The notes beneath the pieces are model-generated. The model saw only the letters and a program-made list of their open reading frames with translations, did not search any database and was not told where the DNA came from. The translations under genes were made by a program, and so were the position numbers. From assembly GCA_041671325.1 (NCBI GenBank), contig JBAZBR010000003.1, positions 68,506 through 132,505 on the forward strand: a stretch of DNA of 64,000 nucleotides. Direction: 5' to 3'. Positions within the stretch are counted from its first letter, which is position 1; each line of letters begins with the position of its first letter. Origin of the DNA: Patescibacteria group bacterium (GTDB taxonomy: Bacteria > Patescibacteriota > Patescibacteriia > PEXW01). Of the stretch, positions 24,966 to 51,804 are shown in pieces.

Positions 24966-25042
<77 letters not shown>

Positions 25043-25230
25043 CGCGCGCACGCGCCTTTCACCTTTCGTGAACGCGCAAGCTTGTTCACTACAGGTTCCA
25101 GGCGCAGCTCGCTTGCCCCGTTTTATCTATAGATAAAACGGGGACCCCGGTTGGATTCTGCAAGCGTACCGCTTACCCCATCCGCCTTTGGCGAGATGGG
25201 GACCCCAAATGAATAAAAATGTTATCATAA
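25043..25230 (+). repeat. tRNA-trailer structured element (Val copy; divergent member of the trailer family)
   Basis: Starts immediately after CCA with CGCGCGCACGCGCCTTTCACC. It contains perfect hairpins CCCCGTTTTATCTATAGATAAAACGGGG and CCCCATC..GATGGGG, each followed by GGGGACCCC, and CGTACCGCTTACCCC resembling the GTGCCGCTnTCCCC punctuation of the other copies. Confidence 0.4.
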
Positions 25231-25528: not shown

Positions 25529-25604
25529 GGGCCGTTAGCTTAGCTGGTAGAGCGCCGCGTTTGCAACGCGGAGGTCGCCGGTTCGAATCCGGCACGGTCC
25601 ACCA
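25529..25604 (+). tRNA. tRNA-Ala(TGC)
   Basis: Hand fold. Acceptor GGGCCGT/ACGGTCC with the G3:U70 alanine identity pair. Anticodon loop TTTGCAA, CCA encoded. Confidence 0.8.
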
Positions 25605-25850
25605 CGCGTCATTGCGAGCGACGGGTTTCGTGTGGCAACATTTGTTGCCCCACTGCACCCTCTGCTCGCATGCCGCTTTCCCCACGCGCCAGTTCCGCCG
25701 CGTGGGGCCCCCAGGAAGATTTTCGTTCGTGTGCCGCTTTTCCTCACGAATGCGTGCTCCTCCCCCTCGACTCCGCTCGGGGTCGTGCGATCCACATTCG
25801 TGAGGTCAGGTTTCACAAACGTGCCGTTTTCCCAAAAAATATATGCAAAT
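25605..25850 (+). repeat. tRNA-trailer structured element, copy U1
   Basis: CGCGTCATTGCGAGCGACGGGTTTCGTGTG, then hairpin GGCAACATTTGTTGCC, then CCACTGCACCCTCTG-CTCGCATGCCGCTTTCCCC. Further modules end in GTGTGCCGCTTTTCC and GTGCCGTTTTCCC. About 60% GC against a background near 40%. Confidence 0.55.
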
Positions 25851-26346: not shown

Positions 26347-26519
26347 CTGGCTATTTCCAAAGGCCTGGACGAATTTTCGTTCAGGCCTTTATTTATAAAT
26401 TTAACTTTTATTATTGACCAATTCCTGGTAATTTATTAGTATTCGAAAGCTTTAGTGATATGTTTGAATATCTAATGCGTGATGGGTGTCAATAGAGAAT
26501 AAAATAATTGATATTCCCT

Positions 26520-26546
26520 GCGGTGGCCATGGTGTAGTGGTAACAC
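26520..26546 (+). pseudogene. tRNA-His 5' fragment (positions -1 to about 25)
   Basis: GCGGTGGCCATGGTGTAGTGGTAACAC matches the first 26 nt of the intact tRNA-His 150 nt downstream, then diverges. Confidence 0.6.
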
Positions 26547-26673
26547 CCCGCACTACTCACTTCGTTCGAGTGCGAGGGCAGGCAGAGGCAAGTCTGTATC
26601 TCTTGTAAAAAACCACAAAGGTAAGTTTAATTTTCAATTATCATTTATAATATTGAGTAATGCTGTGCATGGG

Positions 26674-26748
26674 GGTGGCCATGGTGTAGTGGTAACACAG
26701 AGGCTTGTGGAGCCTTTATCTCGGGTTCGATCCCCGATGGCCACCCCC
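26674..26748 (+). tRNA. tRNA-His(GTG) with genomically encoded G-1
   Basis: Hand fold. G-1 opposite discriminator C73, acceptor GTGGCCA/TGGCCAC, anticodon loop TTGTGGA, T-loop TTCGATC, CCA encoded. Confidence 0.75.
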
Positions 26749-27135
26749 ATGCACAGCAACCAAAACATATGGTTCGGGTTGGGAATAACAGCAGATCCTC
26801 GAGAACAAAATAAAAGTAAAAAACGAGACCCCGCCCAAGTGGCGGGGCCGATGGCCACCCCAAGGTGGTTGCCACCGCAGGGAATATCAGAGGCTTGCCT
26901 GTCCCGTACTTGAGCCTCGCGAATAGTACGGGATGGAGCCCCCGAACCACCTTGGGTTCGGGGCATGCTTTATCTCGGGTTCTCCGCCACAAAAAAAATA
27001 ATGCGGATCCCCCGCCTACCGAAGCCTCGTGCGGCGGGCAGGCGCCGGATGGCGGGAGATCCCCCAGCCTCACCCGACGAGCGTGCGAGTCAAGGCGGGC
27101 GATGGCCACCCCAAGGTGGTATTCTATGATATAGA
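26749..27135 (+). repeat. GC-rich mosaic of tRNA-His fragments
   Basis: The 3'-end copy CCGATGGCCACCCCAAGGTGG occurs at about 26848 and about 27099. An internal copy at 26888..26982, CAGAGGCTTG-[70-nt insert]-CTTTATCTCGGGTTC, reproduces the anticodon-to-T-arm region with an insertion. About 60% GC. The track ORFs here are judged spurious. Confidence 0.5.
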
Positions 27136-34906: not shown

Positions 34907-35095
34907 TTATGTGTAGAAAATTGCGATCGTGCAGTTGACGAAGGGTTTTCCTTGAGTGTTGATCTCGGCGGTTGTACTGACATGCTGGCTCAAAATGTTC
35001 GTCTTTTTGGAATTCTCCGCGAGCCATTCATTGACTGCCGTCTCAAGGCTACCGACCTTGTTAATGACGTCTTCAGTAAAGATTTTTACCTTCAT
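34907..35095 (-). CDS. small hypothetical protein
   Basis: 62-aa ORF with plausible composition. Confidence 0.25.
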   Translation of the reverse strand: MKVKIFTEDVINKVGSLETAVNEWLAENSKKTNILSQHVSTTAEINTQGKPFVNCTIAIFYT

Positions 35096-35244
35096 GCCCA
35101 GGCCTCTTTTTGTGCCAATAACGGAATTGTTACTGGAATGGGTATTTTAGTCGAAGACCCATGATAAAGTCAAGAGCTTGTTGGAAAAATAATTGAGTAC
35201 CAAAAACGGCTCAATTCGAGCCGTTTTGTTGATTCTTCCCGATT

Positions 35245-38200
35245 TTATCGCGGGATGAGCCGTACCACACTGGCACCCAAGACCCGGCCTTTGCTGTAAG
35301 TCATTCGTTTGATGGTTTGTCGGCCGTCGCCATTGGTTACAGTAACATCGTAAGTGCTATTCTTCAGTTTTGAAATTGGTACTGTGGCCAGCAGAGTCTT
35401 GCCGTTTTTGACTTGGACTTTGCTGGCCTTTACTGCGCCGACGCTTAAAGTTGCTTTGCCAGAAAAATTGGTGCCGGTAACTTCTAACACCATGCTTTTG
35501 CTCGTCCTGCTCTTGAGCGTGAACTTCGAAACCGTGGGCTTTTTCTTGGAAGTGCCAGCGACCGCGAATTTTGACAAGTGCGTGGTCGTGAGGGTAGCGA
35601 CGTTGTCGACTGTGTCTACCAAGCCTGAGGCGCCCGCAGTATCCCAAGTCTCGGTCTGCGGATTCCAGTATTTGGTAGCTAAGCCTTTTTCCCGTAAGCC
35701 ATTATTCACCACAGCGGATTGGGTGTAGGGCAATATAATGGTTGCGGGCAAGTCGAGGGCTTTCTTTTCCCGGCCGGTGGCATCAAAGGCCTGCACTTCA
35801 TAGGCGAGCGAGGCGGGCCGATCTAAGGTGGTGGGGTCAATGTCGACTGTCGGGGTTACGCTAAGCGTGACCGTGCCGCTGGTGTCCAAGGCAAACGGCG
35901 GAACCGAAACATTGGTGCCGTCGGGCAAGCTGACGCTTAAGCCATCATCGGCATTGCCAGTCTTGGTGACTGGCCCGGGAACATTTATGCCTGAATCTTT
36001 GACCGTGAGGTTCGTGGTGGTGGTACCGGTTTTAGCGGAAACTTCAGTTGGTTCACTGCTTACTAAACGCTTGCCGCTGATATCCGTGGCAATGATTATC
36101 CATTTCTCGCCGCTCTTTACCGGCAGGCTATAGGCACCTTTGCTGTTGGTAGTTGTTGAAACTTGCGCGCCATCAGAAGAGTAAGCCGTGACCGTAGCGC
36201 CGGGCTCCACTTTTTTGCCGGTTTTTACCGTGCCCGCAAGCGTGGCATTAGCCGTGGTAAAAGCCAGATTTATAGTTGTTGTTGACCCGCCGCTAACTTT
36301 TATTGCCTTGCCGTCTGGCGCCAGCTGGGTTTCTGGGACTGACGGCGTTTCACCTACGGTTATCAGGTAAGTGCCATTCGGCACCTTGGCCGTGTAGACG
36401 CCCAGTTCATCCGTTTCTACGGTGACCGTGATAAGGTCATTGGGATTTGTGTTCGCACTGTTCTCCAGTGATGGCCGGTTGTCCAGCGTCACTGGCACCC
36501 GCGCAACAATTGTTCCAGCTGCGTCTTTCACTGTGCCTGTAATAGTATTCGTTCCCTGGATAACCGTGAGGTTGCGCGCAACGCTTTGGCCGGCTTTTAC
36601 CGTGATGCTGTTTTGTCCGGCTGGCCGGTTGATGAGGCCAGCGGTAAGCGTCGGATCTTCAATATCATAGTCATAAAGCCAAGTACCAGCCGCTAGCGGG
36701 AGCGAGAAGGTGCCGTCAGAGGCGGTATTTGTACTGGTGAAGTTCCCTTCGCTGTCAACCGCAATAACGCTGATGGTCGAACCAGGGCTGGTTATAAAAG
36801 TTCCATCCGGAAGTTTCAGCGTTCCTGTGAGCGTGGCATCGTAAGCTTTCAACTGGAGGTCTTGGGTGGCGTTTGAGCCTTGGAGGGCGACTTTTTTTTC
36901 AGCCCCGCCAGCGTAATCCGCACCAGGAGCAGCTTGAATGCCCAGAACGACTTTATTGCCGGAGATGTCCGAGGAAGAGAAGCGGATGTTGAAGGTGCCG
37001 TCAACCACCGGGGCGCTTACCCGGGCGCTATTCGAGGTTGTCCGAACGTAGGCACTGCCGACAAAATCCGTAATGACTGCGCCCGCGCTATTGAGAACGC
37101 GGCCTTGCGCCGTCCGGTCGAGATCTTTCACTTGCAGGCGGAGCCCGGTTGCGGTTTGGCCGTTGGTAACCGTGGTTGCTACGGGGGCGACTAGGCTATG
37201 TCCGATATCATTTGAACTTAAGCCAACAGTCCAAGTGCCAGCCCCGACGGTCAGGTCAAAGCTGCCGTCAGAACCGGTCGTCGCGCTTGGCCGCAGGGTT
37301 GTGCCATCCTGAATTGCCTGTACCTGAATGTTGCCCATCGCCCTGTTCTTGGTGTCCGTCACCGTCCCTTTCAGGTGAGCGCTGTCGACTTCGGCGGTCA
37401 CAGTGCCTAAATCAACGCTACCGCCTTCGGTCATTACAAAAGTCGTTTTGGCAGGATCGAATGACTTGCCGCGCAAGTCGCCATGGTATGCCGAGATGGT
37501 GTAGATGCCCGGAGTCAGGAAGACGCTGACAGTCGAGGTCGAAGCATCGACCTTGCGTATGGTGCCAACGCCATCGGCCCGCCGGAAGCTAATGTCCGCA
37601 TTAAAGTCGCTCGTCGTCAGCCCCCGGCCATCGCTATTCAGCAATGTGACTGTCACCTTGCCTGTTGCTGGGGTTACCGTGAAGTTGAGCGTCTGGCTTT
37701 GCGTTGTGGTGTCGCTGGCAAAGTCCACGCGTTGCGGTGGAGTCTCGCTGATCCAGCGTTGCGTGTACTCGGAAAGGTCAACAGCTGGCTGTGCGAACCA
37801 AGTCCCGCCGACGACGGTTGCAGTGTATACACCGCTTGGGTTAGTACGCACCGAAACATTGCTCGCGCTTGCTATGTTGTACGGCACCAGCGTGACTACT
37901 GCGTCAGCGACCGCAGTACCATCGGGGAAAGTTACCGTGCCTGTGAGCGTTTTCGATGTTGCTATAAATTGAAAGTTGACGCCCGGGTGTGACGTACCGT
38001 CGAAGTTGAAGTTGTTGAGGTTTGCGTTGCTGTTTACCTTGTTGTAACCATCGACATCGCGCGGCTCCACAACGTAGTTTGTGCCTAGCGTGAGGTCTGC
38101 AGTGAAACTGTATGTTCCATCAGCCATCGTTAAGACATTCGGTATTGTAGAGCTCCCATTTGGCGTATGCAGCTCCATGATTACATCTTTCATGGGTGCT

Positions 38201-48691: not shown

Positions 48692-48782
48692 AAATTTTAG
48701 GGAATATAAAAAATACTCCGAAGATCAGGCGGGGTATTTTTTTATTTGCGATTTTATAGCTTAAATGTTAATTTTCTTTCAT

Positions 48783-48858
48783 GCGCCCATAGCTCAATGG
48801 ATAGAGTACATGGCTTCGGACCATGGGGTTGGGGGTTCGACTCCCTCTGGGCGCACCA
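48783..48858 (+). tRNA. tRNA-Arg(TCG)
   Basis: Hand fold. Acceptor GCGCCCA/TGGGCGC, anticodon loop CTTCGGA, T-loop TTCGACT, CCA encoded. Confidence 0.75.
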
Positions 48859-49090
48859 CGCGTCATCACGTGCGACGGGTTTCGTGTGGCAACATTTGTT
48901 GCCCCACTGCACCCTTTGCACGCGTGCCGCTCTCCGTGCGAAGCCTCGCTTAACCACAGAAACGCGTACTCCTTCGCTTTACTCAGTCCGTTCCTCGTTT
49001 CTGTGGCGTTTCGAGTTTTTTCCGTGCGTTCCTCATTTATGAGGTAGGTTCCGTTCGCGTGCCGCTCTCCCCAAATTTGTTTTCAACAAA
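48859..49090 (+). repeat. tRNA-trailer structured element, copy U2
   Basis: CGCGTCATCACGTGCGACGGGTTTCGTGTG, then hairpin GGCAACATTTGTTGCC, then CCACTGCACCCTTTGCACGCGTGCCGCTCTCC. A second module ends CGCGTGCCGCTCTCCCC and is followed by the hairpin CCCCAAATTTGTT..AACAAATTTGGG. Confidence 0.55.
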
Positions 49091-49171
49091 TTTGGGACTA
49101 GGTTGTGCCATAAACGGTTACAGACTATTGCTTTTAATTCAGTTTATTTGTAAATTTAAGTCATTCAATTT

Positions 49172-49247
49172 GGGAGCATAGCTTAGCTGGTAGAGCAGAC
49201 GCCTCTTAAGCGTACGGTCGGGGGTTCGAATCCCTCTGCTCCCACCA
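49172..49247 (+). tRNA. tRNA-Lys(CTT)
   Basis: Hand fold. Acceptor GGGAGCA/TGCTCCC, anticodon loop CTCTTAA, T-loop TTCGAAT, CCA encoded. Confidence 0.7.
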
Positions 49248-49606
49248 ACCTACGTTTCGCAGACGGAACTTCGGTTGGCAGGCCAAAAACCTACAATTAT
49301 TAGTTTATTGCTATTTTTATGTGGTTTGTATATGGATTGTCATGCAAAGACGACTATCTTTATATCGGATCAACCAATAGTTTAAAACGTCGTGTGTTTG
49401 AACACGATGCTGGCAAATGTTTAACTTCAAAAAACAGATTGCCCTGTAAATTAAAATTTTATATTGCTGTTAACACAGAAAAAACCGCTAGAAATTTGGA
49501 GAAATATTTAAAAACTGGTTCAGGTAAGGCCATTCTAAAAAAACGAATTTTAACTGACGAAGCTTCGTCGAAAGACGAAGCGTAGTCAGCCCCTCTGCTC
49601 CCACCA
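49248..49606 (+). mobile_element. about 359-bp insertion carrying a GIY-YIG nuclease gene, integrated exactly after the tRNA-Lys CCA with a 16-bp duplication of the tRNA 3' end
   Basis: CCCTCTGCTCCCACCA occurs at 49232..49247 (the tRNA 3' end) and again at 49591..49606. The second copy is immediately followed by the canonical trailer start CGCGTCATCGCGAGCGG. Confidence 0.6.
49319..49585 (+). CDS. GIY-YIG nuclease, YhbQ/UPF0213-like
   Basis: WFVYGLSCKDDYLYIGSTNSLKRRVFEHDAGK(C) matches WF[LV]Y.[LI]...D..LY[TI]G.T..[DS]..RR...H..GKG of E. coli YhbQ-type GIY-YIG proteins. 88 aa. Confidence 0.8.
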   Translation: MWFVYGLSCKDDYLYIGSTNSLKRRVFEHDAGKCLTSKNRLPCKLKFYIAVNTEKTARNLEKYLKTGSGKAILKKRILTDEASSKDEA

Positions 49607-49790
49607 CGCGTCATCGCGAGCGGCGGGTTTCGTGTGCCCCGCCCTGGCGGGACCCACTGCACCCTTTGTTCGCGTGCCGCTATCCCCAATTTTTAATAAA
49701 AAATTGGGGACCCCACGAGACATTAGCTTTCACAGGTGTGCCGCTTTTCCCACGCGCCAGTTCCGTCGCGTGGGGCTCCTGAATATACAA
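49607..49790 (+). repeat. tRNA-trailer structured element, copy U3 (displaced from tRNA-Lys by the GIY-YIG insertion)
   Basis: CGCGTCATCGCGAGCGGCGGGTTTCGTGTG, then a different hairpin CCCCGCCCTGGCGGG at the same position as GGCAACATTTGTTGCC in U1 and U2, then CCACTGCACCCTTTGTTCGCGTGCCGCTATCCCC. Further modules are GTGTGCCGCTTTTCCC and ACGCGCCAGTTCCGTCGCGTGGGGC, which are shared with U1. Confidence 0.55.
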
Positions 49791-49877
49791 AATTTAGCCT
49801 GAATTAAATACAAGAAGTTTTTATTGTTTAATTTTTTAGAGATTCGAAGGGTGATAAAGGCTTAAGTAGGCATACTA

Positions 49878-50198
49878 TTGTATTTTTTTAATACAGATGA
49901 TAATTTGGAAACGCACAAATTGATTAATAAGTTGATGGAAAAAGCTGAAATTCCAACTGAAAGTCATGAAAATAGGGAAAACCAAGGAAAACTGTATGCA
50001 TTTCCTGACGGCCGTTTTCGATTTTTCTATTCAATTGTAGATAACCAAATGGCTATATTCAGGGTTAGGGAAGATATTACGCCATCAATTAGAGCCGAAC
50101 AAAAAGGCATACCCCGTGGATCATCGATTATGCCCGCGAATGAAGAGCAGGTTCAGACCTGGCTTGATGGCCATCCGGATTATAAAATTATTGAATAA
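49878..50198 (+). CDS. hypothetical protein
   Basis: 106-aa ORF. Weak RelE/ParE-like feel, not supported by motifs. Confidence 0.3.
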   Translation: MYFFNTDDNLETHKLINKLMEKAEIPTESHENRENQGKLYAFPDGRFRFFYSIVDNQMAIFRVREDITPSIRAEQKGIPRGSSIMPANEEQVQTWLDGHPDYKIIE

Positions 50199-50305: not shown

Positions 50306-50665
50306 ATGGCCCAAGAAACGCAACAAGTTGAAAGTCCAGCAAGCCTATTTAAACATAAGGCCGAAATAGTAAAAGGCCAATTTGCAGATGCTCATACCCA
50401 GTTAAATAATATCCTCCAATTCCTTAGTCATCCGATAGGTGAAGTGCATAAGGAATTTGTTACCGAAGCTTATTTTCTTTTTTGCGCTTTTACTAAAGCG
50501 CCTTATTCTGACGATAAGTATTGCGGCCTGCATGAATTGAATCTGGCTTTGGCTAATTATTTGGCAAATAGTGTCCCTGACAAGACCTTGCTTGCCAAAG
50601 CCACCAAATGGCAGGAATTCATAGTCTTTGAAGCTTGGTTCAAAAAGATATATCGTTGGTTATAA
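50306..50665 (+). CDS. hypothetical protein
   Basis: 119-aa ORF. Confidence 0.3.
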   Translation: MAQETQQVESPASLFKHKAEIVKGQFADAHTQLNNILQFLSHPIGEVHKEFVTEAYFLFCAFTKAPYSDDKYCGLHELNLALANYLANSVPDKTLLAKATKWQEFIVFEAWFKKIYRWL

Positions 50666-51021: not shown

Positions 51022-51804
51022 TTATACCTCAAATTCCTTGTCTAGTCTGGAAATTTTCTTTACTTGGTTTTTCGGGCTAATTTCAATCAAGATTGAATTA
51101 AAAATCACCGGTCCATGCTCGGCAATTTCGTGCGGTTTCTTGTCACCGCTTAAAAACCTGGGCATGATGGCCGCCTTATCCACGCCAATGATGCCATCCC
51201 GCAACCCGGTCATGCCAACATCGGTGATATAAGCCGTGCCATTAGGCAAGAGGCGGGCATCAGCCGTAGGTACATGGGTATGCGTGCCAATGACTGCCAC
51301 TACGCGGCCGTCCAAGTGCCAGCCTAAAGCCACTTTTTCACTGGTAGCTTCAGCATGCATATCTACAATTATCAAATCAGCCTTGAATTTGGTTAACAGC
51401 AGATCAGCCGCGGTAAAGGGCGAAGTTGCTTCTTGGATCATAAAAGACTGGCCGCTTAAATTTATGATTAGGACCTTTCTTTTTTTGACTACAATGATTT
51501 TTGCGCCTACGCCTGGCAAGCCCTCTTCGTAATTTGCCGGCCGGATAAGATTGGAATTTTCATCAGCCAGCAAAGCATTGGCATCGGTCTTGCTGAAAGT
51601 GTGGTTGCCGCCAGTGCCAAAATCTATACCGGCATTTTGCATCTCTGCCCAAGTTTTTTTAGTCAAACCTTTGCCGTGCGCTAAATTTTCCACATTGGCA
51701 ATGACCAAATCGATTTTTTTCAATTTTTTAAGTTTTGGCAAAACCTTGGCCACAGCCAAGCGGCCGGGTTTGCCTACGATATCGCCGATGAAAAGAATGT
51801 TCAT
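51022..51804 (-). CDS. YmdB-like metallophosphoesterase (2',3'-cyclic-nucleotide phosphodiesterase family)
   Basis: N-terminal MNILFIGDIVGKPGR (TIGR00282-like) and a metal-binding GNH motif. The start is taken at the internal Met. Confidence 0.65.
   Translation of the reverse strand: MNILFIGDIVGKPGRLAVAKVLPKLKKLKKIDLVIANVENLAHGKGLTKKTWAEMQNAGIDFGTGGNHTFSKTDANALLADENSNLIRPANYEEGLPGVGAKIIVVKKRKVLIINLSGQSFMIQEATSPFTAADLLLTKFKADLIIVDMHAEATSEKVALGWHLDGRVVAVIGTHTHVPTADARLLPNGTAYITDVGMTGLRDGIIGVDKAAIMPRFLSGDKKPHEIAEHGPVIFNSILIEISPKNQVKKISRLDKEFEV

Follow-up and report, generated by a model that had tools for sequence, protein, structure and literature searches.

A probably mobile GIY-YIG nuclease cassette with inverted hairpin ends directly behind a tRNA-Lys gene in Patescibacteria

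In the 64-kb stretch of Patescibacteria DNA analysed here (the window), the gene for tRNA-Lys(CTT) is followed directly by a small cassette, which is a real and probably mobile element specific for tRNA ends. The cassette corresponds to the 343 nt at 49248–49590. It contains a single ORF, coding for an 88-aa GIY-YIG protein, and two hairpins in inverted orientation, and it is followed by a second copy of the tRNA 3' end (Table 1). It is a member of a large and apparently undescribed family located behind tRNA-Ser genes in many phyla.

Table 1. Features of the cassette locus in the window.
Feature	Position	Strand	Evidence or remark
tRNA-Lys(CTT), intact, encoded CCA; insertion target	49172..49247	+	ARAGORN; Rfam tRNA 67 bits
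Direct repeat copy 1 (tRNA positions 61–76)	49232..49247	+	
Left hairpin (H_L)	49245..49285	+	DNA fold, motif search, covariation
AT-rich leader	49286..49318	+	No sigma-70-like promoter predicted on + strand
Single-domain GIY-YIG nuclease gene, 88 aa	49319..49585	+	Pfam, alignment, AlphaFold2
Right hairpin (H_R), inverted ("flop") H: CTGAC-GAAG..CGTAG-TCAG	49554..49589	+	
Direct repeat copy 2 (tRNA-Lys 3' end); 1 nt lies between it and H_R	49591..49606	+	
GC-rich modular trailer, abutting CCA of copy 2	49607..49780	+	
Native flank; TGAATA.. is directly 3' of CCA in L093	49781..49851	+	

The repeated sequence, CCCTCTGCTCCCACCA, is the last 16 nt of tRNA-Lys and spans the 3' strand of the T-stem, the 3' strand of the acceptor stem, the discriminator, and CCA. 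The earlier note on this DNA had reported its repetition, and the two copies are indeed exact. They are the only exact occurrences in the window, where 0.03 matches are expected by chance, and two copies were seen in 0 of 100 shuffles. The base 5' of the 16-mer is T in tRNA-Lys and C in copy 2. In a close relative with the same cassette layout (L098), the repeat is 17 nt long; judged from this locus, the repeat in the window probably also spans 17 nt, one of them mismatched. Copy 2 shows one difference in 17 nt between the window and L098, whose cassettes are 81% identical; conservation of copy 2 beyond the neutral level is not significant in this comparison (p ~0.14, our own binomial estimate). 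The repeat is a candidate target-site duplication, which may have been generated by a staggered cut.

The earlier note had also considered that the second 16-mer could belong to a second, degenerate tRNA gene. This explanation, like that of a chance repeat, has next to no probability and was rejected. Fragmented tRNA pieces are seen elsewhere in the genome, around tRNA-His at 26519–27115. However, a permissive Rfam scan of 48700–49900 detected no second tRNA, copy 2 is preceded by the GIY-YIG ORF with no tRNA-like signal, the number of matches expected by chance is far below one, and dozens of other loci are arranged in this way.

Empty and filled sites can be compared among related Patescibacteria. 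The window and L098 are filled, while L091, L093, and L096 are empty. The tRNA-Lys gene is 100% identical to those of L091 and L093. L093 has the same PilT-tRNA-Arg-tRNA-Lys synteny as the window and reads CCA/TGAATA.. at the empty site. The homologous flank resumes at 49781 of the window, and window 49812–49851 aligns with L093 2507–2546 (80%) with the same 31-nt offset. L091 reads tRNA/trailer, and its tRNA-Lys promoter region is common to the filled L098. L096 is without the cassette. These sites confirm that the insertion starts exactly after CCA, as the earlier note had claimed, and they are the cassette-free relatives for which it had suggested looking.

The trailer directly 3' of copy 2 reads CGCGTCAT..GGGTTTCGTGTG... 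As also noted earlier, the same trailer family directly abuts CCA at other tRNA genes, namely tRNA-Arg(TCG) at 48858 and tRNA-Ala at 25604; a variant abuts the CCA of tRNA-Val at 25042. The trailer is probably an independent CCA-abutting insertion, as it is absent at the orthologous position in L093. Because the empty site of L093 is without the trailer, the trailer may have arrived either before or after the cassette. The earlier proposal that the target is the junction between tRNA and trailer needs correction: members of the family are inserted at tRNA 3' ends whatever follows, and 96% of these are tRNA-Ser.

The protein, as the earlier note recognized, is encoded between the repeats and belongs to the GIY-YIG superfamily. 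Its residues 1–69 match Pfam GIY-YIG PF01541 (E = 2e-11, 44 bits, cut-off 22.6), the GIY/YIG tyrosines, Arg, and Glu are conserved, and the fold agrees. The predicted catalytic residues Y5, Y15, R25, H29, and E61 are invariant in an alignment of 37 homologues. Homologues are 79–100 aa long. The AlphaFold2 model (pLDDT 80) has a GIY-YIG fold and matches UPF0213, Slx1, and I-TevI, of which UPF0213 and Slx1 are the nearest. In NCBIfam, no model is matched above the cut-off; group I intron endonuclease is matched weakly, below the threshold. The nearest solved proteins are UPF0213/YhbQ (PDB 1zg2, 1ywl) and the nuclease domain of Slx1 (profile E = 1.7e-7 and 6e-4; Foldseek rank 1–5), which have the beta-beta-alpha-beta-alpha core in common with the 88-aa protein. 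The match to UPF0213 is restricted to the N-terminal residues 2–66, with ~31% identity. The protein ends with the motif KTGSGKAILKKRILTDEA. The C-terminal motif EKY(F/L)KTGSGKAILKKRIL is specific to the cassette family and is not seen in UPF0213 or Slx1. The assignment to GIY-YIG is thus sound, but the "full YhbQ/UPF0213 signature" of the earlier note was overstated, because the C-terminal half differs.

Both ends of the cassette are hairpins. In H_L, the outer stem is formed by CCAACC (49245–50) and GGTTGG (49273–78), so that the 5' strand consists of the CCA of the tRNA and the 3 nt after it. Inside, the conserved TACG (49251–54) and CTTCG (49269–73) surround an inner stem-loop, and CAGGCCA follows. 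The DNA fold consists of the outer stem, a 1x1 mismatch, 1 bp, another 1x1 mismatch, and the inner stem. In the family, the outer stem of H_L is a covarying 7-bp stem beginning at the discriminator. With strict patterns, the H_L motif is present in 49 of 79 family loci; it adjoins a tRNA end in 44 of 79. H_R is the reverse complement of the H_L motif. It shares sequence with the conserved C-terminal codons (those for TDEA), and its CGTAG provides the stop codon TAG, which ends 73 of 88 family genes. The fold of H_R has a z of −4.1, and an equally good fold was found in 0 of 200 shuffles. H_R with a covarying stem accompanies 54 of 88 family genes; a stricter set gives 51 of 79. tRNA, H_L, H_R, and the repeat are found all together in only 27 of 79 loci when strict patterns are used. 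The earlier note missed both terminal hairpins and the family-wide pattern. No further copy of the cassette or of the H motif was found in the window. The only other match to the pattern, at 51502, lies within a ymdB-like gene and was rejected as spurious.

Extra copies at other tRNA 3' ends, for which the earlier note had proposed a search, are not seen in the window, but related cassettes are widespread in other genomes. Among 83 loci with homologous genes, 78 have a tRNA gene on the same strand ending less than 900 nt upstream, with a median gap of 117 nt. tRNA-Ser accounts for 75 of these 78 loci (96%), covering all four anticodons. The hosts are Patescibacteria, Bacteroidota, Ignavibacteriota, Marinimicrobia, Dehalococcoidia, and others. 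In 59 of the 78 loci, at least 10 nt of the local tRNA 3' end recur exactly at ~4–60 nt past the stop codon, while control positions give 6–9 nt. The copied tRNA end typically runs from position ~60/61 to the end, and 40 of the 78 loci have a perfect 13/13 copy of tRNA positions 61–73. In 52 of the 78 loci, the downstream copy matches the local tRNA better than any other of 31 distinct 13-mers. This indicates that the copy derives from the target and was not carried along with the cassette. Depending on the criterion, the downstream copies are decayed by point mutation or absent in about a quarter to half of the loci. The length of the repeat is variable: 13–20 nt at tRNA-Ser and tRNA-Lys, just GAGCCA at tRNA-Gln (L025), and about GCCA between miniatures, whereas in about 25 loci it extends at least 40 nt into H. 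Such variation fits poorly with a simple staggered cut.

Integrative elements that target tRNA genes classically leave a direct repeat of the tRNA 3' end, beginning at the T-loop boundary. The repeat in the window could accordingly be the att core left by Campbell-type integration of a small circle at a tRNA attB, with a host or phage recombinase acting in trans or with annealing at microhomology. The repeats have a constant left boundary and a variable right one, as for an identity block, and a circular H_R-core-H_L would resemble two inverted binding sites around a core. Even so, this origin is quite improbable. The 533-nt insert neither contains nor adjoins an integrase gene, and the family loci generally lack one. 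Given that the nearest relatives are at tRNA-Ser, a core brought in by the cassette should be Ser-like, but copy 2 in the window is of the Lys type at 16 of 16 positions; throughout the family, the downstream copies match the local tRNA.

Several observations suggest movement of the cassette. The closest relatives are located at different tRNAs (Lys, Ser-GCT, Ser-CGA, Ser-GGA, and Gln). In the tree, cassettes are grouped by host lineage and the isoacceptors are mixed. L050 contains tandem cassettes that are 96% identical, and one MAG has copies 90% identical on two contigs. Miniatures consisting of H_L and H_R without the ORF form arrays with periods of 62 and 81 nt (L039, L046, and L080), and a hairpin nested within another hairpin is found among them. 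In Chitinophagaceae, the flanks are mosaic; species of this family keep the cassette at the same tRNA, which indicates that many copies are old residents. PHROGs contain no match to the family, and no match was found among plasmids. Phages yielded two weak matches (32–36% identity), and IMG/VR one locus with no tRNA nearby. Based on this scarcity, the family is not typically viral or plasmid-borne.

The earlier note had suggested a homing-type or site-specific mobile element. Its second half agrees with the data: the cassette is probably mobile and specific for tRNA ends. A free-standing GIY-YIG homing endonuclease would make a double-strand break in a cassette-free tRNA allele, and recombinational repair would copy the gene in. 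The GIY-YIG domain with intact catalytic residues, the presence and absence at orthologous tRNA-Lys loci, and the weak sub-threshold similarity to group I intron endonuclease are compatible with such a process, which is nevertheless very unlikely here. Characterised homing GIY-YIG enzymes such as I-TevI and Seg are modular, whereas the 88-aa protein is a single domain without a separate DNA-binding domain. Homologous repair leaves no target duplication, but the insert is flanked by a duplication of 16–17 nt. Inverted hairpin ends, ORF-less arrays of two hairpins, and tandem cassettes are left unexplained, and the movement within lineages between non-homologous tRNA loci differs from homing.

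The closest known system to the tRNA-end cassettes is the Ssn family. In the literature on GIY-YIG genes and tRNA ends, the only relevant work found is the paper describing this family as site-specific ssDNA nucleases with hairpin repeats called NTS/SRM (Chenal et al. 2025, Nat Commun 16:2388, PMC11893778). Ssn proteins are single-domain GIY-YIG proteins of ~94 aa, and their genes are flanked by hairpin repeats on both sides. They cleave ssDNA immediately upstream of the hairpin and are inactive on dsDNA and RNA. The repeats are also found gene-less and clustered; the authors called the architecture "identical to IS" and drew the analogy to REP/RAYT (PMC11893778). The cassette shares with Ssn a single-domain GIY-YIG protein within ~90–100 aa or close to it (88 aa) and hairpin-forming repeats 5' and 3' of the gene. 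In contrast, the SRM consensus HGTCWYN(0-2)YYVSBRHN(0-5)WNVSBRGN(0-2)RNCYNB has 0 matches in the window (mean of shuffles, 0.2) and 4 in 483 kb of family loci. Anchoring at tRNA 3' ends (mostly tRNA-Ser), duplication of the tRNA end, and the position of H_R over the stop codon are also unlike Ssn; the Ssn paper mentions neither tRNA association nor end duplication (PMC11893778). Ssn hosts are mainly Pseudomonadati, while the cassettes are in Patescibacteria, Bacteroidota, Ignavibacteriota, and others. By this comparison, which covers the published description and the SRM consensus, the cassette family may be either a member of Ssn (cd10448) or a sister family.

Ssn has been proposed to be a domesticated element modulating transformation, and SsnA restricts incoming ssDNA in Neisseria (PMC11893778). 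By the same reasoning, the cassette could be a gene that has been domesticated and does not move. It would be transcribed together with the tRNA, and the hairpins and the tRNA copy would act in RNA, for instance as processing or stability signals or as a decoy for RNase P/Z, or else the nuclease would benefit the host, for instance through restriction of incoming ssDNA. No promoter is predicted between tRNA-Lys and the ORF, and a joint transcript with the tRNA is probable. The same-strand tRNA in 78 of 83 loci, the retention at the same tRNA across Chitinophagaceae species, and the covariation of the hairpin stems could likewise reflect a function in RNA or for the host; Patescibacteria carry type IV pili, and pilT adjoins the locus. 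Domestication is still unlikely as the explanation of the whole. SsnA is inactive on RNA (PMC11893778). H_L and H_R are reverse complements, which makes them two different motifs in RNA but one site in two orientations in DNA. The downstream copy is decayed or absent in many loci, and empty sites, tandems, miniature arrays, and changes of the tRNA host point to movement.

In REP/RAYT systems, a small nuclease gene is located between inverted imperfect palindromes with a conserved tetranucleotide of the CTAC/GTAG type, and gene-less doublets form arrays (see also the discussion in PMC11893778). The cassettes have these features too, but they resemble REP/BIME (REPIN)-RAYT (IS200/IS605-like HUH Y1) in layout only, including the doublets and arrays in L039, L046, and L080. 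RAYT is an HUH Y1 transposase, whereas the cassette enzyme is a GIY-YIG protein, and the specificity for tRNA 3' ends with a 16–17-nt target duplication is unlike REP/RAYT. As in classical IS and DNA transposons, there are terminal inverted repeats (H_L/H_R) and a target-derived direct repeat, but the sole ORF is the GIY-YIG gene and not a known transposase (DDE, HUH, serine, or tyrosine). The insertion at the tRNA 3' end, with a repeat that keeps the tRNA functional, is reminiscent of tRNA-targeting integrative elements, which combine such a repeat with an integrase. Casposons have inverted ends and a long (14–15 bp) target duplication. Unlike either, the cassette has no tyrosine integrase or Cas1; it consists of ~340 bp with one predicted hydrolytic nuclease of 88 aa.

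Taken as a whole, 49248–49590 with the repeated tRNA end is rather probably one copy of a widespread, selfish, hairpin-bounded GIY-YIG cassette that moves by nicking. The unit is a minimal (~85 aa) single-domain GIY-YIG gene between two inverted copies of a conserved imperfect hairpin. It is inserted exactly after a tRNA 3' end, normally that of tRNA-Ser and here that of a tRNA-Lys with a tRNA-Ser-like 3' end. A stretch of ~16–17 nt from the T-loop/T-stem boundary to CCA is present in duplicate, and by this duplication the tRNA stays intact. By analogy with Ssn nucleases, it is inferred that the protein recognises both hairpins as folded ssDNA, one on each strand, and nicks a few nucleotides 5' of each, at CCA/H_L on the top strand and at H_R/repeat on the bottom strand. 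Host replication and repair would then copy or move the nicked unit to another tRNA 3' end. The chemistry of GIY-YIG enzymes is hydrolysis of DNA, and to our knowledge none joins DNA or has covalent strand-transfer activity; any "paste" step must therefore come from the host.

Few "hypothetical nucleases" of bacterial genomes are as common as the small GIY-YIG genes with a single domain. Their Ssn branch was characterised only in 2025 (PMC11893778). The cassette branch has an unusually clean anatomy: a fixed address, inverted hairpins, a target-derived repeat, miniatures, and natural empty and filled sites. The address, the tRNA-Ser 3' end, is universally conserved. With this anatomy, self-driven spread, the cut sites, and target duplication by a purely hydrolytic nuclease are all testable by oligonucleotides and PCR. 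The family also offers further hairpin/nuclease pairs for ssDNA tools, and, because of the cassette repeats, assembled Patescibacteria genomes are broken at tRNA loci. A more tentative possibility, which is doubtful at present, is that the cassettes represent a new class of autonomous mobile element, in which a minimal Ssn-like GIY-YIG ssDNA nuclease recognises the hairpin ends, insertion at tRNA 3' ends duplicates positions ~61–76, and ORF-less miniatures are mobilised. If so, they would be the GIY-YIG counterpart of RAYT/REPIN, and tRNA-Ser would be a safe harbour for them across many phyla.

The last 16 nt of tRNA-Lys(CTT), CCCTCTGCTCCCACCA, occur exactly twice in the whole window: at the tRNA 3' end (copy 1) and again downstream (copy 2), the two positions given in the earlier note. 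Shuffled sequence contains on average 0.03 occurrences, and in no shuffle are two seen. The segment between the copies is 343 nt in length and contains a single ORF, which encodes a GIY-YIG protein. Copy 2 is followed without a gap by a GC-rich trailer, CGCGTCAT..GGGTTTCGTGTG.., whose family directly abuts the CCA of tRNA-Arg(TCG) and tRNA-Ala elsewhere in the window, with a variant at tRNA-Val. These observations, too, agree with the earlier note. A degenerate second tRNA gene as the source of copy 2 is refuted, since no second tRNA turns up near the cassette in an Rfam scan at permissive settings, and the reading of copy 2 as a repeat stands. No promoter is predicted ahead of the GIY-YIG ORF; therefore, the gene is likely co-transcribed with the tRNA. 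By both sequence and fold, the protein is nearest to UPF0213 (1zg2, E = 1.7e-7) and to the nuclease domain of Slx1, which makes "YhbQ-like" no more than loosely right.

Coordinates of the tRNA-Lys cassette and of the GC-rich trailers (window positions unless stated)
Feature	Coordinates	Basis or remark
tRNA-Lys(CTT)	49172-49247	ARAGORN and Rfam
Copy 1, last 16 nt of tRNA-Lys	49232-49247	exact match
Left hairpin	49245-49285	
GIY-YIG ORF, 88 aa	49319-49585	Pfam GIY-YIG, E = 2e-11
Right hairpin	49554-49589	tRNA-end copy begins one base later
Copy 2	49591-49606	exact match
GC-rich modular trailer	49607-49780	
GC-rich modular trailer	48859-49095	
GC-rich modular trailer	25605-25845	
GC-rich modular trailer	25043-25205	
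GC-rich modular trailer	1278-1390 of L091	

Exact protein matches assign the window to a Patescibacteria (CPR) MAG, and its PilT protein places it near Kerfeldbacteria. In the relative locus L093, PilT is 93% identical to that of the window, and the DNA of the upstream genes, pilT and tRNA-Arg is ~76% identical. The gene order PilT-tRNA-Arg-tRNA-Lys is common to both. The tRNA-Lys of L093 is 100% identical to that of the window, and TGAATAAAAG.. lies directly 3' of it. The homologous flank in the window, TGAATATACAAAA.., is found at 49781. Positions 49812-49851 align to 2507-2546 of L093 (80%), and both are 31 nt from TGAATA. This flank homology and the equal offset indicate that the window carries 533 extra nt (49248-49780), corresponding to the cassette, the repeat copy and the trailer, and beginning exactly after the CCA of tRNA-Lys. 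In L096 (PilT 89% identical), tRNA-Lys is followed by a GC-rich trailer, with neither a cassette nor a second tRNA-end copy. The closest homologue of the protein (84% aa) is in L098, where the same cassette (81% nt) lies behind an almost identical tRNA-Lys with a repeat of 17 nt, TCCCTCTGCTCCCACCA. L091, located by a metagenome search for the predicted empty junction, shares with L098 a ~50-nt region upstream of the tRNA and reads from tRNA into trailer without a cassette. Empty sites, which the earlier note proposed to look for, are thus present in L093, L091 and L096.

A lineage-specific 119-aa ORF lies downstream of the cassette (window 50306-50665). Its homologue in L091 (6-360, minus strand; DNA 66% identical over 425 nt) is also next to tRNA-Lys, but upstream of it and on the opposite strand relative to the window arrangement. 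The tRNA-Lys neighbourhood has been rearranged among relatives. The contigs of close relatives L092, L094, L095 and L097 stop just after pilT or within tRNA-Arg; apparently, the repeats that flank the tRNAs interrupt short-read assembly here.

Among 5.8 billion proteins searched, 298 relatives are found, all of ~80-100 aa; when 1.84 billion cluster representatives are searched with a profile, 1,952 pass E <= 1e-10 and 13,064 pass E <= 1e-3. Scanning one genome per species reveals at least 528 coding stretches, of which the best 80 loci were analysed together with context loci. Their hosts include Patescibacteria, Bacteroidota, Ignavibacteriota, Marinimicrobia/Fidelibacterota, Dehalococcoidia, Peribacteria and others. 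Upstream sequence of 300 nt or more is available for 83 genes of this set, and in 78 of them a tRNA on the same strand ends < 900 nt before the gene (median gap 117 nt). The target is thus the tRNA end, not the tRNA/trailer junction proposed in the earlier note. tRNA-Ser accounts for 75 of the 78 (GCT 32, CGA 19, GGA 12, TGA 12), and the exceptions are Lys (the window), Gln and Asn.

At least 10 nt from the 3' end of the gene's own tRNA recur without mismatch soon after the stop codon in 59 of the 78, typically 4-12 nt beyond it; control positions yield matches of at most 6-9 nt. On the left, the copy starts almost invariably at the T-loop/T-stem boundary (TCCC..), and its right limit varies. 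The copy of tRNA positions 61-73 is perfect (13/13) in 40/78. When the copies are compared with the 31 distinct tRNA 13-mers of the data set, 52/78 match their local tRNA better than any other, which indicates that the local target, and not an earlier site of the element, is the source of the copy. The nearest relatives of the window cassette are at tRNA-Ser, yet both window copies are 16/16 Lys-type. Judging from these matches, the downstream copy is derived from the local tRNA; with the absence of 49248-49780 from L093, the earlier note is supported in part, namely in that the unit was inserted at the CCA and that its repeat stems from the target. Integration at the tRNA by an integrase is quite improbable, as no integrase is present and the tRNA-end copies are of the local type.

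The two hairpins, which do not figure in the earlier note, represent one motif in inverted orientations. The left hairpin is conserved and lies directly 3' of the tRNA. The 5' strand of its 7-bp outer stem consists of the discriminator, CCA and 3 nt; where CCA is not encoded, whatever sequence succeeds the discriminator is used. Next come TACG/TGCG, an inner stem-loop that varies, CTTCG, the 3' strand of the outer stem and CAGGCC(A). Covariation is seen in the outer stem; one position, for example, is A-T in 57, C-G in 23, T-A in 6 and G-C in 4. The right hairpin is the reverse complement, stem-CGAAG..CGTAG-stem, at the 3' end of the ORF. Its CGAAGC part encodes the conserved C-terminal peptide TDEA, and its CGTAG supplies the stop codon TAG in 36 of 54 detected cases (TAG is 73 of 88 stop codons in the family). 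The DNA folds of both agree: between the outer and the inner stem lies a single pair with a 1x1 mismatch on either side. The gene is thus enclosed by two inverted hairpin ends, which in turn lie between the direct repeats. Under strict patterns, the tRNA, both hairpins and the repeat are found together in 27/79 loci, and individually the left hairpin in 49, the right hairpin in 51 and the repeat in 56.

In L089 (3290-3345) and L076 (3285-3325), the hairpin after the downstream copy is inverted in its interior when compared with that behind the tRNA (TACGCCAAGGCTTCG vs GAAGCCTTGGCGTAG), with unchanged flanks, an in-place hairpin flip. The empty-site relative L093 has a separate block at 2476-2745, 150 nt downstream of tRNA-Lys. 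It comprises a GC-rich module located after GGGATTCGAAGGG; 19 nt copied from the 3' end of tRNA-Lys; a left hairpin 86% identical to that of the window; and a short degenerate remnant like the right hairpin, with no ORF. In this block, a tRNA-end copy and a hairpin thus lie away from the tRNA.

Units without the ORF (left hairpin, linker, right hairpin) occur in tandem arrays, with periods of 81 nt (L046 and L080) or 62 nt (L039), joined via GCCA-like ends mimicking the tRNA terminus. In L046, a hairpin is nested in the loop of a right hairpin. L050 contains two tandem cassettes, 96% identical, each followed by a tRNA-end copy, and one Marinimicrobia MAG has 90% identical copies on two contigs. 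In a neighbour-joining tree, the proteins cluster by host lineage and tRNA isoacceptors are mixed inside lineages, indicating moves between tRNA genes within lineages. Four Chitinophagaceae species have the cassette at the same tRNA-Ser(GCT), with mosaic repeated flanks. Downstream copies are often point-mutated or lost, and they act as footprints, not as parts that are strictly needed. An immobile element with an RNA-level or host-serving role gains some support from the strand bias and the long residence, but is unlikely, being at odds with the inverted symmetry that the hairpins have as DNA and with this evidence of movement.

L004 is a related contig from Patescibacteria. There (860-2040), the 3' end of tRNA-Ser(GCT) recurs four times downstream of the gene, and these copies set apart two GC-rich non-coding modules and the GIY-YIG cassette. 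Another small GIY-YIG ORF (~957-1199), unlike that of the cassette, terminates precisely at the tRNA 5' end, and 21 nt copied from this 5' end lie ahead of the ORF. A third GIY-YIG gene, UPF0213-like, lies after tRNA-Ser(TGA) at 598-840.

The GC-rich trailers begin immediately behind the CCA (CCA|CGCG..TTTCGT..), and then contain repeated units of the type GTGCCGCTTTCCCC, a hairpin and GGGG(A)CCCC. Like the left hairpin, their first stem pairs with CCA (CCACGCG/CGTGTGG). They are missing behind the orthologous tRNA-Arg and tRNA-Lys of L093, and so appear to be insertions themselves. tRNA-His(GTG) (26674-26749) lies amid duplicated pieces of itself (26519-27115): its 5' half at 26522-26545, its 3' end GATGGCCACCCCA at ~26851 and ~27102, and anticodon-stem and T-arm pieces at ~26890 and ~26960, with GC-rich hairpin modules between. 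The arrangement resembles the outcome of serial insertions that duplicate ends, or else a second tRNA-His that was shattered. Window 35000-38000 has a G+C of 0.51-0.58, vs ~0.42 in the rest, and no Rfam match at gathering thresholds.

The cassette is inserted exactly at the CCA, its repeat comes from the local tRNA, its hairpin ends are inverted, miniature and tandem derivatives exist, and it is present in some relatives and absent from others. In the mechanism that we suggest, each hairpin would be recognised by the nuclease on whichever strand presents it in the "flip" orientation, and the DNA would be nicked 5' of it. The nicks would then fall at the junction of tRNA and left hairpin on the top strand and at that of right hairpin and repeat on the bottom strand. 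Host replication and repair would copy or move the unit, and the duplication would leave the tRNA intact. GIY-YIG enzymes are hydrolytic, and the repeat is not constant in length: it is 6 nt at tRNA-Gln and ~4 nt between miniatures, and runs at least 40 nt into the hairpin in ~25 loci. A simple staggered cut as the source of the "target-site duplication" of the earlier note is thus unproven, and the repeat could alternatively have formed by annealing via the tRNA-end sequence. A classical homing endonuclease, also suggested there, is highly improbable, because the protein has no DNA-binding domain and homing gives no duplication, which is present here.

Ssn proteins are single-domain GIY-YIG proteins of ~94 aa (CDD cd10448), whose genes have hairpin repeats (NTS/SRM) on both sides (Chenal et al. 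2025, PMC11893778). Ssn binds the hairpin as ssDNA and cuts just upstream, and does not act on dsDNA or RNA; the authors point to an IS-like layout and the REP/RAYT analogy, and tRNA is not mentioned (PMC11893778). The published SRM consensus is absent from the window and effectively from the family loci (4 matches in 483 kb). Both systems have a small single-domain GIY-YIG protein and a gene between hairpins, whereas the tRNA-end cassettes differ in the hairpin, the tRNA-end address and the target duplication. By analogy, the family may work like Ssn and may be related to it. No literature linking small GIY-YIG genes to tRNA ends was found. The element is a variant of Ssn-like hairpin-flanked GIY-YIG elements, and its family-wide pattern of tRNA-end cassettes, undescribed to our knowledge, is striking.
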